The notes beneath the pieces were generated by a model. It did no database searches. It was not told where the DNA came from and was given only the letters and a program-made list of their open reading frames with translations. DNA of 54,885 bases. Source: a bacterium. GTDB lineage: Bacteria; UBA6262; WVXT01. The position numbers and the translations under genes were made by a program. The DNA lies in NCBI GenBank assembly GCA_046759165.1, contig JBHIBS010000005.1, positions 1 through 54,885 on the forward strand, given 5' to 3'. Positions 4,031-48,424 of the stretch are shown here, piece by piece (position 1 is the stretch's first letter; each line of letters starts with the position of its first letter).

Positions 4031-6247
4031 TTACATCATCCCACTTCTCCTGCGAATATACCATTCGATACCTAACAATATGGAAAGGAGAAGAAAGATA
4101 GAAGGATGGTTCCAGACCGCCACTACTCTCTTCACTACAGGAGTAATCCCCTTTACCTCAGGCAAAATGATGTTCTCCGATTCAATACTATTAATATGGA
4201 AATATCTTCCACCAGTTAAATCTGAAAGCTCTCTCAAAAGTGGTTCGTTCAGTTGAGCATTTTCCAACTCGAGAGATGGAATGGCTACCTTACAAGAAGC
4301 AGTGTCCCTGGCGAGAACCTTCGAACCTTGCCAAGCTGTGGCACTAAATGTATACTTTCCTTCTCGCTCCGCTAAATAATTCGTTCCATATTCCCCAGGT
4401 CTATCTTTTGGTGCAGCGGTTCCCAAATCAATCCTCTTTCCTGATAGGTCTACCAATTCTATATAGACCCTGGCATTTTCACTCGGCCTGTAATATCTGT
4501 TAAGGACTCTAGTAGTCAAATGAATTGTTTCTCCCTTTGCATAGATTTTCTTATCTGTACTTAGATGGACCAGTTTAAGTTGGGGGGATTTCACCAACCA
4601 GTGGACAGTCTGATGCCAGAACCGCTCATAATATGAAGCTATACCCCCTCGGCCTCGAACCTGAAAACACCAGCGCCACGTACTATTAGAAGCCATACTC
4701 ATTACTCTCCCTTTCCCTTTCTCCCAAACAGCAAGTATCACTAGATTTCCGTACCTATTCTTAATTAAAGGATGGACTCCTAAAACAATGGCTTCAGGCT
4801 TCGGCCTTAACAGACGATTGCAGCCGTCCAACTCAGGCATCCCTGCCCATATCCGGCTATTCTCTCCCCGGTTATCGGATAATCTCAGAATTGGATGCGT
4901 GGGCTCTGTTGTTAACATTTTAAACTTACTATCTATAATGTCTTCCCTCACATCTTCCATTTCCACGGGCAGTATCTCCCCGACTGGGGTCCCTTTATAT
5001 CTTCCCCCGGCAAAGGAGTTATCTCCGCCTATCATGAGAAAGCCTCCCCCTGTTTCGGTAACGAATTTTCGAATGTTCTCCAGATACTTTTTTCCAAACC
5101 CGAACCGAGTATAGGTAAAATTTTCAAATATGAGTAAATCGAAGTTGAATATCTCTTTACCAAATATTTCTGTGACAGGAAAGGGAATCAATGAGAGCTG
5201 ATTTTCAGGCACTATCGAGATATTTTCAGGATTGCGCAGTATTATAAAAGAGACCAATTCTATGCTTGGGTCACTCTTCAAAACGGTCCTCAAAAATTTA
5301 TATTCCCAGCTTGGCTGTCCACAGATGTAGAGAATTCTAATTTTATCTCGAAGAACCTGCAGGGTGAAATCTTTTATATTATTGGCAAAGGAAATCTCGC
5401 CACTATATGATGGAATGGAAACTGTATAGTTGAAAGAGCCTATCGAGCGGGGAGTGAAGCTCAAACTCAAAGAGGTCTCTTTTCCGTCTTCTGGCATCCG
5501 AACTTTTTTTGTCTGGAGTATTTCCGACTCTTCCTTTAGGATAACCGATATCTCCTTATCTTCAAATCCATAACTTCTTATCTTGACACCTATATCTGTT
5601 GGAGTGTTCTTGAAAACAAAATCGCTAACTTGAACCTCAGTAATTTGAAGGTCCTTGAATTTTTTGGGATTTCCCACGCCGATGGAAAAGATAGGGGCAG
5701 CGATCCTTTCAGTTGCCAGACGAGGATCTCCTCCTACATTATGAGCCCCGTCAGTAACGAGGAGAATTCCGGCCAGTCTCTGACCACGAAGTTCTTCTTC
5801 TAAGCCATCTAAAGCCTGCCCAATATCAGTGCTTTCTTCTTGAGGAATCAATTGAAGGATCTCCTCTACTATAGCTCGCTTGAAACTGCCAGCGAAAGTA
5901 AAAAAGAGGAGATTATATTTCTCTTCTAAACCCTTGACCCAAGGACCTTTCAGTAATTCTTTGACCAGAGAGAACCTGGATATGGGATCTTTCACTCCCA
6001 TACTGCTTGAGGCATCTATCAAAAAAGCGAGGCTCGGTTCCTCAGCTGGCTCCTCTTCTATAGTTCTCACTGGCTCGAGCAGCAGGAATATGAGAAGGAG
6101 ATAGATTATTAACCTTAAAATAAAGAATAGACCCTTCCTTCTCTCTAACCATTTGAAATTCCAGTATAAGACTACTACCGAGACAAGCACGGTAGCTATT
6201 ATCAGCCATAGCCTATTAAAGTCTAACGAAAAATGGAGAGAACCCAC
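4031..6247 (-). CDS. VWA domain plus class I glutamine-amidotransferase-like membrane protein
   Basis: DASSSM MIDAS motif, TDG motif, GGGFLMIGG GATase-like segment, C-terminal EWYIRRR TM tail. Confidence 0.75.
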   Translation of the reverse strand: MGSLHFSLDFNRLWLIIATVLVSVVVLYWNFKWLERRKGLFFILRLIIYLLLIFLLLEPVRTIEEEPAEEPSLAFLIDASSSMGVKDPISRFSLVKELLKGPWVKGLEEKYNLLFFTFAGSFKRAIVEEILQLIPQEESTDIGQALDGLEEELRGQRLAGILLVTDGAHNVGGDPRLATERIAAPIFSIGVGNPKKFKDLQITEVQVSDFVFKNTPTDIGVKIRSYGFEDKEISVILKEESEILQTKKVRMPEDGKETSLSLSFTPRSIGSFNYTVSIPSYSGEISFANNIKDFTLQVLRDKIRILYICGQPSWEYKFLRTVLKSDPSIELVSFIILRNPENISIVPENQLSLIPFPVTEIFGKEIFNFDLLIFENFTYTRFGFGKKYLENIRKFVTETGGGFLMIGGDNSFAGGRYKGTPVGEILPVEMEDVREDIIDSKFKMLTTEPTHPILRLSDNRGENSRIWAGMPELDGCNRLLRPKPEAIVLGVHPLIKNRYGNLVILAVWEKGKGRVMSMASNSTWRWCFQVRGRGGIASYYERFWHQTVHWLVKSPQLKLVHLSTDKKIYAKGETIHLTTRVLNRYYRPSENARVYIELVDLSGKRIDLGTAAPKDRPGEYGTNYLAEREGKYTFSATAWQGSKVLARDTASCKVAIPSLELENAQLNEPLLRELSDLTGGRYFHINSIESENIILPEVKGITPVVKRVVAVWNHPSIFLLLSILLGIEWYIRRRSGMM

Positions 6248-11305: not shown

Positions 11306-11341
11306 TCATTGCGAGCGACTGCTTCGCTCCTGGCAATGACA
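11306..11341. repeat. Internally deleted GTCATT-type REP copy
   Basis: TCATTGCGAGCGACTG is fused directly to CTTCGCTCCTGGCAATGACA, the two arms of the IS target repeat. A GTAG-type palindrome follows at about 11350-11377. Confidence 0.7.
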
Positions 11342-15231: not shown

Positions 15232-16050
15232 CTATCTTTCCTGTTCTTGCAATTCGGTTTCCAATGGTTCCACTTTTTCCACTCTCAGAGGTCCTTTCTG
15301 TTCCATCTTAATCAGACCTTTTCCTTTTAATCTGGTGAAAATCAGTTCATTAACCTTCCCCAGATCTTCAGAAATAGTATCGACATCTTTCCCATTCATA
15401 TATAGTTTGACACCATCCACATTTCCAATGCGAACATTCATTTCATTCTTTGCTACCCATCTTTTCTTTTCACCAGGAAAGAGTGTTCCTTCAAAAGAGA
15501 CCACACCGTCCCCAATCACTCGTAGCCAAGTTTTATCATTTATTTCCGCTACTATAGAAATATCTTTGGGCATACTAGTGGAGACATTTATCTTTGCCTT
15601 CACCTGTTGAGAGAGTTGCCGTGAAGCCGATTGGAGAAAAAAAATCGCGGAAAGACCCGCCCCCACAACCACTCCAATCGCCAAGATAAATGCAATGGGG
15701 CTCTTGTTGGTAAATCGGAGTGCAGCGATCCCTTCTCTGGACATCAATTTCTCTTCTGCGCCCCAACTCATCACAATAGGGAATTTAGGATTGAGGTCCA
15801 TTTTGTCTTTTTGTCCGGAATGCTCTCTCTTATAAATATGGACAAGCGATTCAGCGTCCAGCCCCAGATAACGAGCATAATTCCTGAGAAATGAGACCAC
15901 ATAAATCTTTGCTGGAAAAACATCGTATCTTTCTTTTTCCAAGGCTTCCAGGTACTTCTTAGCTATTTTCGTCTCTTCTGAAACCTGATGCAAGCTAATT
16001 TCTTTATTGCGACGAGCTTCCTGTAGTCGTTTACCGACATTTTCCGCCAT
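15232..16050 (-). CDS. rodZ: RodZ-like protein (HTH, TM, DUF4115)
   Basis: N-terminal HTH (YLEALE, FLRNYARYLGLD), single TM, C-terminal WLRV..DG / IGN domain; lolA-rodZ-pgsA synteny. Confidence 0.85.
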   Translation of the reverse strand: MAENVGKRLQEARRNKEISLHQVSEETKIAKKYLEALEKERYDVFPAKIYVVSFLRNYARYLGLDAESLVHIYKREHSGQKDKMDLNPKFPIVMSWGAEEKLMSREGIAALRFTNKSPIAFILAIGVVVGAGLSAIFFLQSASRQLSQQVKAKINVSTSMPKDISIVAEINDKTWLRVIGDGVVSFEGTLFPGEKKRWVAKNEMNVRIGNVDGVKLYMNGKDVDTISEDLGKVNELIFTRLKGKGLIKMEQKGPLRVEKVEPLETELQEQER

Positions 16051-16103
16051 TTCTGTTCCTATCAGTTTTGCAGGGGTAAAACCGTGTCCACAAATGTCAT
16101 TGA

Positions 16104-16109
16104 TATAAT
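16104..16109 (+). promoter_or_regulatory. -10 half (TATAAT) of the circle-junction promoter
   Basis: Sits 17 bp from TTGACA (17370-17375) once the two ends are joined at one TG. Confidence 0.85.
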
Positions 16110-16184
16110 GAAAAGGCTTGTCCTCCCCGAGTTATTTTAGATAAAATAACTCTAAGTGAAAATTTCCGAAAGGAGGACGAAGCC

Positions 16185-17249
16185 ATGAACGCCTATATTG
16201 GTGTAGACTTACACGAGAATTATTCATTTTTTACTGCAAAGAACAGAGATGGAAAAATTATGGCACCACTACGAAAAATTATCAATCGGGAGAGAGAAAT
16301 TTTAGACTATCTCTCGCACTTTAAAAACCCCAAAGTAACGCTTGAAGCAACACTAAATTGGTACTGGCTTGTTGACCTTTTACAGGATTATAACTACGAT
16401 GTAACACTTGCTCATCCCAAGAAGGCAAAAGCTATTGCTTCTACCAAAATAAAATCTGACAAAATAAGTTCAAAAATATTAGCCGACCTTTTACGGTCTG
16501 ATTTAATACCTGCGTGTTATATCCCGGATAGAGAAAAAAGAACACTTCGTGATTTCCTGAGACATAGAACAGTACTTGTCTCCATAAGAACTTCTCTTAA
16601 GAATCGCATCCATGCTGTACTTCGTAATTTCAACTTCCATTGTCCTTACAGTGATCTGTTTGGTAAAAGTGGCAGAACCTGGCTTAAACAGGTATCACTT
16701 CAAAGTTATTATAAAACGATTATTGATAACTTTTTAAGCCTTATCGATGCTATAGAACCAAAAATTCATGAGGTTACAAAAATTATCAAAGAACTTGCTG
16801 AAAATAATCCCCAGGCACGTTTAGTTGATGAAATACCTGGCATCGATTATTACTCCGCTCTTTTAATTGTCCTGGAAATAGGAGATATAAGAAGATTCTC
16901 TGATCGTAGACATTTTTGTTCCTATATCGGTATAGTTCCCTCATCTCACAGCTCAGGTGACATAGACTATACAGGAAAGATTACCAAAGAGGGTAACAGT
17001 TGGCTTCGCTGGATTATTATTGAAGCTGCTCAGAAATCGCAAACTTTCGTGAACAACCCATATCACTCTCTGTTTTTGAAAATATCTAATAAGAAAGGTT
17101 CAGCTATTGCCAAAGTTGCTGTTGCCAGGAAAATAGCCACAGCGATATATTATATGTTGTCAAAGAACGAACATTTTAAACTTCCGAAATCTTTAAGGTC
17201 TCAAATATCTGGGGTAAGCCCGGTGCTCGCAATAGCCCAACGAGGCTGA
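16185..17249 (+). CDS. IS110 family DEDD recombinase/transposase
   Basis: GVDLH (D8), LEAT (E54), KSDKIS (D92; fourth acidic position is Ser95), IPGI, YIGIVPSSHSSG (catalytic Ser region), KEGNSWLRW, VAVARK; GGAGG SD. Confidence 0.96.
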   Translation: MNAYIGVDLHENYSFFTAKNRDGKIMAPLRKIINREREILDYLSHFKNPKVTLEATLNWYWLVDLLQDYNYDVTLAHPKKAKAIASTKIKSDKISSKILADLLRSDLIPACYIPDREKRTLRDFLRHRTVLVSIRTSLKNRIHAVLRNFNFHCPYSDLFGKSGRTWLKQVSLQSYYKTIIDNFLSLIDAIEPKIHEVTKIIKELAENNPQARLVDEIPGIDYYSALLIVLEIGDIRRFSDRRHFCSYIGIVPSSHSSGDIDYTGKITKEGNSWLRWIIIEAAQKSQTFVNNPYHSLFLKISNKKGSAIAKVAVARKIATAIYYMLSKNEHFKLPKSLRSQISGVSPVLAIAQRG

Positions 17250-17320
17250 GTCATTGAATGGGAAACCCCTCAAGCCGAATGAATATATACTGTGCCATAG
17301 AGCACAAATAAGTGCGTGAG
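17211..17320 (+). ncRNA. Predicted bridge RNA/seekRNA with target- and donor-binding loops
   Basis: Two stem/internal-loop/hairpin modules folded by eye. Loop 1 carries GCTCGCAAT and GTCATTG (target matches); loop 2 carries TATAT and ATAAGTG (donor-junction matches). Confidence 0.78.
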
Positions 17321-17369
17321 CGAAAAACCAAAGATCTTTCTTAAATATCATAAAAATCAAAGATATCCC

Positions 17370-17375
17370 TTGACA
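17370..17375 (+). promoter_or_regulatory. -35 half (TTGACA) of the circle-junction promoter
   Basis: Outward-facing consensus -35 overlapping the right sub-terminal IR. Confidence 0.85.
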
Positions 17376-17389
17376 AGCCTTTTCATAAG

Positions 17390-17457
17390 TGCGAGCGACT
17401 GAAAGGAGCGTGGCAATCTCCAGATTTCTTCGGTTGCTTCGCTCCCTCGCAATGACA
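17390..17457. repeat. Right part of the interrupted GTCATT-type REP
   Basis: TGCGAGCGACTGAAAGGAGCGTGGCAATCTC...TTGCTTCGCTCCCTCGCAATGACA. The missing left tip TGTCAT lies at 16095-16100. Confidence 0.85.
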
Positions 17458-17508
17458 ACAAAATCATTGTAGGCACACATTCAATCTGTGCATAATTTCC
17501 AGTATTGC

Positions 17509-18162
17509 CTAAGGGGATTCGAATACTTCTGCTTGGAAAGGTATCTTAAACTCAAAAATTTCATCATCTACTTCAGGATTCTTTACGATGTTGTCCAGAT
17601 AAGTGGAAACTACTGTAAAACTATCGCTGACTTCTGTTTCCACTGGCAACCAATATTGTTTTGAAATTACGAGGATTATCTCTACCCCATCTTGATTTTT
17701 TGGGACTAATTTAATCTTATAGTTTTCTCCTTTTCCTTCTACCACTTCTTTTCTATAATTTTCCAAATCTCCAATCCTACTTGCCCAAAAGAAGAGACCT
17801 AAATTCAGTCCCATTAACTCTTCCAATCTGCCAACTGAATGGATGGAAACTTGATTATACTCAGGCAAATAGAACCAGGCCTTTTTGCCATTGCATACAA
17901 TGATTTGTGGATAAGGCTGAATGTACTCAGCGTATAGCTTATCGGGAGCTTTAAATTTTATTGAACCTTTAACCAGTTTTTTCTCGAAAGTAGCTTTTAT
18001 CAGTATTTTCTGTTCGAAGTCGAAACTCCCTGTCTCTATGTTCTTTCTTTCCCTCTCCAATTTTTTCAGAATATAGGAAATTGTGTCCTTTTGAGAAAAG
18101 CCTGGAGTAGAAATTAGAAAAGTCAAACAGAGAAAAATGGCACTTGTTTTAGTTACGTTCAT
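17509..18162 (-). CDS. lolA: Outer-membrane lipoprotein carrier LolA family protein
   Basis: Signal peptide, FEQ, PYPQIIVCNGKKAWFY.P..NQV, C-terminal FEFKIP; downstream of ftsK. Confidence 0.85.
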   Translation of the reverse strand: MNVTKTSAIFLCLTFLISTPGFSQKDTISYILKKLERERKNIETGSFDFEQKILIKATFEKKLVKGSIKFKAPDKLYAEYIQPYPQIIVCNGKKAWFYLPEYNQVSIHSVGRLEELMGLNLGLFFWASRIGDLENYRKEVVEGKGENYKIKLVPKNQDGVEIILVISKQYWLPVETEVSDSFTVVSTYLDNIVKNPEVDDEIFEFKIPFQAEVFESP

Positions 18163-46326: not shown

Positions 46327-46396
46327 GAGAGTCACTGCGAGAGAGCAAAGCGACCGAAGCAATTTCAAGATTGCCACGCTTGTTCCTTCACTTCGT

Positions 46397-48424
46397 TCAG
46401 GACCGCTCGGAATGAGACGATTTCAATTTCATGTATTTTTTAGTACGAATTGGCTTAGTGCTTTTGCATTTGGGATAGGCGCTACAGGCAAGAAATTTGC
46501 CTCTCCGACCCGATTTAATCACCATAGGGCTTCCGCACTTCGGACATTTTTCTTCAGTAATCTGCGCCACTATCTTTTTTCCTTGTTCATCTAAAGGAAC
46601 AGTATAACGGCAACGAGGAAATGAAGAGCAAGCAAGAAATTTGCCAAACCGCCCAATTCTGATTACCATGGTGCTTCCGCACTTTGGACAAGTCTCCCGA
46701 GTTACCTGAGGTTTGATCTTCGTCATATGTTTATAAGCAATGTTCAGGGTTCTCTTAAAGGGCTGATAAAAGTTATTGAGGACTTCAACCCACTCCCTCT
46801 TCCCCAAAGCAATCTCATCCAGATTCTCTTCCATATTGGCAGTGAAATCGATGTCCATGATTTTTGGGAAGTATTTTACTAACAAGTCATTAACTATAAT
46901 CCCGGTCTCTTCTGGATGGAACTGTTTCTTCCTTAATGTCACATACCTTCTTCCCAAAAGGGTGCTTATTATGGGAGCATACGTTGAAGGTCGACCGATG
47001 CCGTGTTCTTCGAGAGTCTTAATTAGAGTCGCCTCCGTATAATGGGAAGGGGGTTCAGTGAAGTGCTGCTCGGGAACCACCTCTTTTAAAACCAAAATAT
47101 CACCTTCTTGAAGAGGAGGAAGAATTTTTTCCTTTTCCTCCTTTTCTTCCCGATAGACCTTAAGAAACCCGGAAAACTTAAGCTTCTGTCCTGTAGCGCG
47201 AAACATATAATCGCCCGCTCTGATGTCCACAGCTACTGTATCAAATATTGCCGAAGCCATCTGGCTGGATACGAACCTCTGCCAGATCAGGTTGTAAAGT
47301 CTAAATTGAGAAGCATTAAGGTATTTCGATATGGCTTCCGGAGTGCGGAGGCAGGAAGTTGGCCGGATAGCCTCGTGAGCTTCTTGGGCAACTTTACTCT
47401 TACTTTTATAAATCCTTGGCCTTTTGGGCGAGTAGTGCTGGCCAAACTTTTTCCTGATAAAACTAAGAGCCTCAGCCTGAGCCGAGGAAGAGACAGTGAA
47501 TGAATCTGTCCGCATATACGTAATTAACCCTACACTCTCTTTCTTTCCCAGGTCGATGCCCTCATAGAGTTGTTGTGCTATCACCATTATTTTAGTCGCT
47601 GAGAAACTAAGCCTTCTGGAAGCCTCCTGTTGAAGAGTGCTTGTCTTAAATGGGGGAAGGGGATTAGCCTTCTTAGCCTTTCTGGTTACTTTCAAGACCC
47701 TAAACTCTTTACCACTCAAATCCTGACAAATCTCCTTCGCCCGTGACGCATTTGCAATTTCTAGTTTCTTAAACTTCTTTTTCCCTTTGGCAATGAGATT
47801 TGCCGCAAAGATTCGTTCCTCATCTCTCTTTCTCAAATGGGCAAGTATAGTCCAGTACTCTTGAGGAACAAACCGCTCAATTTGCCTTTCCCTCTCAATA
47901 ACTAGTTTCAGAGCCACGGATTGTACTCGTCCTGCTGAAAGACCCCTTCTGACTTTGTTACTCAAAAGGGGGCTGAGCTTGTATCCAACCAGCCGGTCGA
48001 GTATGCGTCTTGACTGCTGGGCATTAACTAAATGGAGGTCGATTTGATGTGGAGAGCGAAGGGAATTAGCAATTGTCTGTTTGGTTATCTCATGGAAGAC
48101 TATACGTTTTACTCTCCCCTGGTCAGTGTTTGTAACTGAAACTAAATGCCAACCTATAGCCTCCCCTTCGCGGTCCTGGTCGGTGGCAATATAGATCTGT
48201 TTAGCCTCCTTCACTGCCTTGGTTAAATCTTTCACAATTTTCTTTTTATTCTTAATAATCTCGTAAGTAGGGCTAAAATTGTCTCCTATATTCACCCCCA
48301 GTCTATCCGGAGGCAAATCACGAACATGCCCCATAGAAGATTTAATTACATAATCTTTCCCCAATATCTTACCGATCGTCTTTGCCTTAGTGGGTGATTC
48401 GACAATAACTAAAGCCTTGGCCAT
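46397..48424 (-). CDS. topA: DNA topoisomerase I
   Basis: LVIVESPTKAK, DQDREGEAI, SAGRVQS, ITYMRTD, AHEAIRPT, GIGRPSTY; two C-terminal zinc ribbons. Confidence 0.98.
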   Translation of the reverse strand: MAKALVIVESPTKAKTIGKILGKDYVIKSSMGHVRDLPPDRLGVNIGDNFSPTYEIIKNKKKIVKDLTKAVKEAKQIYIATDQDREGEAIGWHLVSVTNTDQGRVKRIVFHEITKQTIANSLRSPHQIDLHLVNAQQSRRILDRLVGYKLSPLLSNKVRRGLSAGRVQSVALKLVIERERQIERFVPQEYWTILAHLRKRDEERIFAANLIAKGKKKFKKLEIANASRAKEICQDLSGKEFRVLKVTRKAKKANPLPPFKTSTLQQEASRRLSFSATKIMVIAQQLYEGIDLGKKESVGLITYMRTDSFTVSSSAQAEALSFIRKKFGQHYSPKRPRIYKSKSKVAQEAHEAIRPTSCLRTPEAISKYLNASQFRLYNLIWQRFVSSQMASAIFDTVAVDIRAGDYMFRATGQKLKFSGFLKVYREEKEEKEKILPPLQEGDILVLKEVVPEQHFTEPPSHYTEATLIKTLEEHGIGRPSTYAPIISTLLGRRYVTLRKKQFHPEETGIIVNDLLVKYFPKIMDIDFTANMEENLDEIALGKREWVEVLNNFYQPFKRTLNIAYKHMTKIKPQVTRETCPKCGSTMVIRIGRFGKFLACSSFPRCRYTVPLDEQGKKIVAQITEEKCPKCGSPMVIKSGRRGKFLACSAYPKCKSTKPIRTKKYMKLKSSHSERS

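Follow-up and report, generated by a model that had tools for sequence, protein, structure and literature searches.

The element and its insertion site

The window, that is, the whole stretch of 54,885 bases analysed here, carries a 1289-bp insert (16103–17389 plus one TG) between rodZ and lolA, which interrupts a 74-nt palindromic repeat (Table 1). Both junctions can be read directly. The left one is ...TGTCATTG/ATATAATG... at 16102/16103, and the right one is ...CATAAG-TG/CGAGCGACTG..., with the TG at 17390–91. The two TGs (16101–02 and 17390–91) are the sole duplicated sequence at the junctions, and the intact arm at 76–110 of the minus strand runs from TGTCATTG straight into CGAGCGACTG. 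This reading upholds the original prediction of an IS110 element set at a precise TG inside a REP-like palindrome, without target duplication beyond the 2-nt core. The inverted repeats are placed 5 nt inside the left end, and 3 nt plus the TG core inside the right end.

The transposase, encoded by the single ORF of the element, matches the Pfam families PF01548 (N-terminal RuvC-like, E 8e-17) and PF02371 (C-terminal, E 4e-21) and the model NF033542 'IS110 family RNA-guided transposase' (217.9 bits; cut-off 140). Its sequence matches in PDB are ISCro4 (9t56, E 2e-13) and IS621 (8wt6, E 8e-12), and no relative found in the species genome collection exceeds 46% identity to it. The gene is preceded by 82 nt and followed by about 140 nt of non-coding sequence. 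A longer end downstream of the gene together with subterminal repeats is the layout reported for IS1111-type elements (PMC11187229, Siddiquee et al.; PMC11208160, Durrant et al.). Three traits of this subgroup are present: subterminal repeats within 7–17 bp, the longer end downstream, and a top-strand match 5′ of the bottom-strand match. By its sequence features, the element belongs to the IS1111-type subgroup of the IS110 family and not to the IS621-like subgroup, since it combines a short left end, a long right end and subterminal repeats.

The ftsK-lolA-rodZ gene string contains the present copy in opposite orientation, 52 bp upstream of rodZ, and may suffer a polar effect from the insertion. 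A promoter-like site in the left end (16134–16162, minus strand, 9/12 consensus match) faces outwards to rodZ; as a consensus match only, it might offset the polarity of the insertion. A second, unrelated IS1111-type element is found on another contig of the genome (C2, approximately 4712–6021). Its transposase is 38% identical over residues 53–331, and the element has 16-nt inverted repeats and is flanked by ...AAGGAGG and GGAGG..., a ribosome-binding-site-like word.

Table 1. Features of the insertion locus and of the target repeat, in window coordinates.
Feature	Position	Strand	Basis or remark
Empty target copy	76–110	−	34/35 identical to the restored arm
Short degenerate repeat copy with ATCATTGCGAGCGACTG	11306–11341	+	BLAST, 78% over 32 nt
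rodZ	15232–16050	−	
Left stub of interrupted repeat arm, TGTCATTG	16095–16102	+	Direct reading; last two bases (16101–02) are the TG core
IS1111-type insertion sequence, 1289 bp counting one TG (17390–91)	16103–17391	+	Junctions, inverted repeats
Left subterminal inverted repeat, ATGAAAAGGCTTGTC	16108–16122	+	15 nt, 100% complementary to 17372–86
Transposase gene, 354 aa, DEDD / IS110 family	16185–17249	+	PF01548, PF02371, NF033542; single ORF of the element
Right target guide GCTCGCA	17225–17231	+	Antisense to TG and right flank CGAGC; within the last codons of the transposase
Small hairpin AGCC...GGCU between the two target guides	17234–17247	+	Fold; in relatives a variable-length hairpin at the same place
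Stretch matched by RNA model R1	17248–17340	+	26.3 bits, E 3.9e-5
Left target guide GTCATTG	17250–17256	+	Same-sense copy of left flank GTCAT and core TG
Right donor guide TATAT	17284–17288	+	Antisense to first bases of left end (ATATA)
Conserved donor-loop hairpin UGUGC...GCACA	17291–17306	+	Fold; consensus in 32 relatives
Left donor guide ATAAGTG and next two bases CG	17308–17316	+	ATAAGTG (17308–14) copies right end and core; CG (17315–16) equals first two bases of target right flank
TTGACA, −35 once the ends are joined	17370–17375	+	−10 TATAAT at 16104–09
Right subterminal inverted repeat	17372–17386	+	Pairs with 16108–22
Rest of interrupted 74-nt palindromic repeat	17392–17457	+	Folds at −22.9 kcal/mol, z −2.3
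lolA	17509–18162	−	
Degenerate repeat copy	46331–46397 (approximate)	+	BLAST, 84% over 50 nt

Target and donor loops of the predicted guide RNA

Guides were located by seeking matches between the 3′ end of the element and either the target or the joined ends of the element. Two pairs of short matches were found, each enclosing a small hairpin (Table 1). GTCATTG begins directly after the transposase stop codon, 18 nt separate it from the right target guide, and it aligns with positions 1–9 of R1, a covariance model built from 32 distant relatives with the window and the metagenome locus L008 (see below) left out. When R1 was run over the 54,885 bases on both strands, 17248–17340 was the sole match below E 0.9, the next best having E 0.94. 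The donor hairpin has five consensus pairs, of which four show compensatory changes among the 32 relatives. No match of R1 was obtained at E 0.001 in the whole 1.9-Mb genome, but this null result is uninformative because the window's own match falls just above E 0.001 in 1.9 Mb.

Nothing relevant was returned by Rfam, either for the whole window at gathering thresholds or for 16000–17500 at E up to 10. Folded as single sequences, the two small hairpins did no better than shuffles (z −0.75 and −1.4), and the right end was uninformative (z −0.21). RNAalifold, applied to a MAFFT alignment, recovered the donor hairpin and proposed one further helix, which pairs the right target guide with the bases following the left donor guide; this helix is ambiguous because target complementarity accounts for it equally well. 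A longer likeness of 17308–23 to the right junction (14/15, one extra T) was dropped. It is not kept in L008, and the claim is limited to the two bases that directly follow the left donor guide. Among the public sequencing runs listed as holding the stretch, none is recorded as RNA.

In IS1111-type seekRNAs the top-strand match is reported to lie 5′ of the bottom-strand match, and in IS110-type RNAs the order is reversed (PMC11187229). A bridge RNA of the IS621 type was considered as an alternative layout and ruled out, the RNA being at the 3′ end and the guide order reversed.

The target repeat

The repeat is multicopy, extragenic and palindromic. Removal of the element and one TG restores the 74-nt palindrome. 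Its first 35 nt, the restored arm, occur once more in the window, at 76–110 of the minus strand, with one mismatch, as had been stated beforehand; matches in shuffled sequence numbered 0/100. The two degenerate copies expected at 11306–11341 and about 46331–46397 are also present (Table 1). BLAST against the 1.885-Mb assembly (165 contigs) found about 30 full or half copies of the 74-nt repeat on other contigs. In four public runs, contigs matching from 17390 rightwards read ...TGTCAT just before it and are thus other, uninterrupted arms. The same contigs diverge at 17456–58, marking the arm and the right edge of the repeat independently.

Across the 1.9-Mb assembly, the guide-specified 12-mer GTCAT-TG-CGAGC is matched exactly at three sites, all unoccupied, and within one mismatch at 53; the reversed word gave 0 and 5, respectively. 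Long open frames (at least 120 codons) contain 10 of the 53, vs 1319 of 1500 random positions. The notion of many harmless landing sites fits these counts, 43/53 sites being clear of long open frames. Of the word variants, GTCATTGCGAAC occurs ten times in the assembly, ..GAGG six times and ..GAGC three times.

Outside this genome, 13 of the 40 searched contain the repeat pattern, which makes 14/41 with this one (7/8 family members and six unrelated families), and the reversed control had no match anywhere; the target supply would on this basis be much wider than the known range of the element. It is not a REP in the strict sense (GTAG-tagged and RAYT-associated), as it starts (T)GTCATTGCGAG and lacks GTAG. 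A literal search of papers for the repeat words gave only unrelated primers among the matches listed, and no published description of the repeat family was found there.

Other repeats occur nearby. At 17469–17491, directly adjoining the palindrome, GTAG is followed by a GCACA...TGTGC hairpin that resembles GTAG-tagged REPs, and the lolA-rodZ spacer is therefore a small cluster of different repeat types. At the contig start (1–520), at least three further modules of short interspersed repeats form a mosaic (approximately 1–109; 216–341, with an internal tandem copy; 410–483). Each module recurs many times on other contigs, frequently at their ends, and the assembly seems to be broken by repeat clusters.

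Guides and targets in relatives

Relative-encoding loci were fetched (160), and ends were definable for 65, window included. The end form TG/AT... and ...RRG-TG is present in the 65, with the TG imposed by the search pattern. Target guides were scored as exact pairs, antisense over 5 nt or more and sense over 6 nt or more, spaced 14–40 nt. Such guides to the element's own target were found in 21/65, covering 15 target words, and to foreign targets, taken from dissimilar elements, in 4 of 2976 pairings. The other 44/65 lack a guide pair under this strict exact-match rule, and many of them fall in one subgroup with a variable right flank.

The left donor guide (copy of the right end and core) is present in the right non-coding end of 63/65 relatives and changes with the element end, six pentamers being represented (ATAAG, ATAGG, AGGGA, AGAGA, ATAGA and ATGAG). 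Antisense matches to the left end (5 nt or longer), which mark the right donor guide, cluster 21–30 nt before the left donor guide: 37 lie there, and no other 5-nt bin holds more than seven. In 43/63 relatives, the dinucleotide that follows the left donor guide is identical to the one that opens the target right flank; ten different dinucleotides are represented, and 2000 shuffles gave a mean of 17.9 and a maximum of 28. Alternatively, these two bases may have their partner in the RNA itself, at the 3′ end of the right target guide.

A second insertion and variant guides

The metagenome locus L008 carries a copy of the element with 92.2% identity over 1302 nt. The flanks of L008 and contig C16 of this genome are only 80–81% alike, and L008 therefore comes from another species and another locus. 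Its site, TGTCATTG/.../TG-CGAGG..., has the same word and orientation and a different repeat variant to the right. The L008 guide is CCTCGCA, as compared to GCTCGCA in the window, and the target right flank is CGAGG instead of CGAGC. The guide differs at a single position, which is silent in the protein (GTG to GTC). We take L008 to be a second, independent insertion with a compensating guide change. One loose motif scan was mostly noise, and only one line of it was used, along with the C16 spacer.

Runs X1 and X2 hold a second variant of the element, changed at 17223–26, with a guide ending ..TTCGCA. Together with the word counts given above, this variant provides weaker hints that guides may track targets. 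If guide variants do track repeat sub-families, ..TTCGCA variants are expected in GTCATTGCGAA.. copies. The right target guide and the hairpin (17220–17249) encode the last residues of the transposase (..PVLAIAQRG), and close homologues among P0001–P0011 differ exactly at the C-terminus (..RFAIAQ, ..TYAIAL, ..EMHIAL). Because this guide lies within the last codons, retargeting would change the protein tail.

The site in related genomes and strains

DNA of the element was not found in 40 other genomes. Five IS-free genomes from the same family but other genera (RodZ 66–74% identical) have lolA adjacent to rodZ. Their lolA-rodZ spacers measure 61–143 nt and contain neither the element nor such a palindrome, as compared to 169 nt for the spacer of the window after removal of the element. 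An intact palindrome had been expected at this place in IS-free relatives, and its absence from the five, though these are of other genera, formally counts against the original prediction by the terms set for it. The palindrome-free spacers bear on the repeat's own mobility and not on the target assignment, which rests on the paralogous empty copies and on L008. These spacers show the palindrome itself to be a lineage-specific insertion here.

In runs X4 and X5, which come from other studies and differ at 2 positions over 218 nt of rodZ, contigs join 16058 to 17498 with unknown letters between, and there is no depth over the element. In the two runs that hold the stretch best (X1 and X2), no contig bridges an empty site or joined ends.

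Joined ends, catalytic residues and activity

Joining of the ends places TTGACA and TATAAT at a 17-nt spacing, matching 12/12 consensus positions, with TG-A just before the −10. At least 10/12 promoter positions spanning the join are found in 46/65 relatives, and in 0/62 in the integrated state. A promoter formed by joined ends (circle junction) has been proposed for the family (PMC11187229), and the consensus promoter seen here supports the element boundaries.

The IS110-family reference residues are those of IS621: D11, E60, D102, D105, and S241 of the SG motif. In the transposase D8, E54 and D92 are conserved and an SG motif aligns with that of IS621. The fourth catalytic aspartate, D105 of IS621, aligns with S95 (K-S-D-K-I-S-S, codons 92–96, window 16458–16472). 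Among 120 listed homologues, 117 with a motif match, the equivalent residue is D in 107, S in 8 and A in 2. The serine is common to eight homologues at 61–92% identity (P0001–P0006, P0009, P0010).

One full copy is assembled in this genome (165 contigs). On contig C3 (58800–58842, locus L002), 27 nt identical to the right end (window 17359–85), including the right inverted repeat minus its last base, are fused to the far arm of a repeat copy. This stretch looks like a relic of a second, deleted copy. One copy, three empty exact sites and the C3 relic suggest low or past activity.

Alternative explanations

It may be asked whether the boundaries are wrong, so that the repeat halves are part of the element or the repeats are footprints of it. 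The right inverted repeat does share CCTTTTCA with CCTTTCA of the repeat, and the form on C3 is fused. Against this, uninterrupted arms without the element occur both in the window and on other contigs, 13/40 other genomes have the repeat pattern and lack element DNA, and L008 has the same ends with a different repeat variant to the right. Misplaced boundaries are hardly credible in view of these copies. Slightly less remote, but still very improbable, is a protein that reads the shape or sequence of the repeat's hairpin, with the RNA matches being coincidental. The site is indeed at the base of a strong palindrome, and the target stem-loop of ISPpu10 is reported as an extra specificity layer (bioRxiv 10.64898/2026.03.19.712850). 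Such a protein would leave unexplained the 21/65 guides to own targets vs 4/2976 for foreign pairings, the variation of guides with 15 target words that mostly come from outside this repeat, and the compensating change in L008. A structural gate could add to RNA guidance but not replace it.

A reading that must be weighed more seriously, though it is rather unlikely, is that the element was RNA-guided at landing and is now a stranded, inactive copy; the guide reading holds in this case too. The single full copy in 165 contigs, the three unoccupied exact target words, the lack of empty-site or joined-end contigs in X1 and X2, and the serine in place of IS621 D105 are in agreement with it, and the 27-nt right-end relic on C3 indicates that copies do decay. 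However, the element retains an intact ORF, perfect inverted repeats and a 12/12 joined-end promoter, while the serine, common to eight homologues, looks like a clade trait and not decay. L008 as an independent insertion of a 92%-identical copy and the second sequence variant in X1 and X2 also speak against a stranded copy, and multicopy elements often collapse in such assemblies.

Proposed mechanism

The preferred reading is that an IS1111-type element chose this site through a guide RNA (seekRNA or bridge RNA) encoded in its 3′ end that reads a multicopy repeat, and we consider it highly probable. Behind it stand the anatomy of the element, the complementarity of the guide to both sides of the TG, the covariation in relatives and the second insertion with its compensating change. 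The earlier proposal of a guide programmed to a multicopy intergenic repeat is in this way supported. The RNA would have two loops of one design, each consisting of an antisense-to-top-strand guide, a hairpin and a top-strand-copy guide. The target loop (17225–17256) would read GTCAT-TG-CGAGC, the 12-nt word at the base of the multicopy hairpin repeat, and the donor loop (17284–17316) would read the joined ends of the element itself. Recombination at the shared TG core would give a single orientation and leave TG on both sides. Joined ends would then form the consensus promoter that drives the transposase and the RNA. With an intergenic repeat supplying the target word, most landing sites would leave genes unbroken. 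From sequence we infer that the RNA is produced, that the transposase binds it and that the element is still mobile.

A broader joint reading for the IS1111 clade can be put forward tentatively, and is doubtful as a whole. The bottom-strand-type guides would be short copies of the two integrated junctions, with the donor guide running two bases into the target right flank as a possible mirror image of the IS621 handshake. The right target guide would lie in the last transposase codons, so that retargeting rewrites the tail, and guide variants (..GAGC, ..GAGG, ..GAA) would appear to track sub-families of a multi-phylum hairpin repeat. If true, a mirror-image handshake would place the staging of strand exchange on the strand opposite to that in IS621.

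IS1111-type guides have received less study than IS621, and the family-wide tables may yield design rules for them that can be tested. Candidate rules are the guide order per loop, the two-base extension after the donor guide and the tolerance of serine at the fourth catalytic position. The locus also offers a fully annotated natural guide (target loop, donor loop and predicted joined-end promoter) and natural retargeting between close variants.

Comparison with known systems

IS621 of E. coli is an RNA-guided DEDD recombinase (PMC11208160; PMC11208158), as the present element, known from sequence alone, would be. Both have two loops, each reading both target or donor strands around a 2-nt core. 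REP elements are the natural targets of IS621 (PMC11208160, Durrant et al. 2024). The analogy with IS621 that was drawn originally stands as regards the REP-like target, of a different repeat family, but not as regards the subgroup, which is IS1111-type with a seekRNA in the 3′ end and not a 5′ bridge RNA. In IS621 the RNA is in the 5′ end, the guide order within a loop is reversed relative to the element here, the core is CT instead of TG, and the ends are described without long subterminal repeats, whereas 15-bp ones are present here. Protein similarity is weak (E 8e-12). Two-base handshake guides beside the top-strand guides of IS621 pair with non-cognate DNA after strand exchange (PMC11208158, Hiraizumi et al. 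2024); the two extra bases found here follow a bottom-strand-type guide.

A close likeness in layout is to ISPa11 and other seekRNA elements of the IS1111 type (ISEc11, ISKpn4, ISPst6). They share subterminal inverted repeats, a longer non-coding end downstream of the transposase gene, and a top-strand match 5′ of the bottom-strand match, overlapping at the insertion point (PMC11187229). ISPa11 inserts in REPs (PMC1525189). Unlike ISPa11-type elements, the one described here has a different target word in a different repeat family, a right target guide inside the coding sequence and serine at the fourth catalytic position. ISPpu9 and ISPpu10 of Pseudomonas putida, also of the IS110 family, are likewise reported only from copies of one intergenic palindromic repeat (PMC1525189; PMC12288879; bioRxiv 10.64898/2026.03.19.712850), but in another phylum and another repeat, and in ISPpu10 the target stem-loop is reported to add a second layer of specificity.

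In Proteobacteria it is established that REP-like repeats serve RNA-guided IS110/IS1111 elements as safe harbours. The present case extends this to an uncultivated lineage and to a different repeat family, which spans several phyla. The element joins the known class of REP-targeting IS110/IS1111 elements (PMC1525189; PMC11208160); the lineage and the repeat family are what is new.
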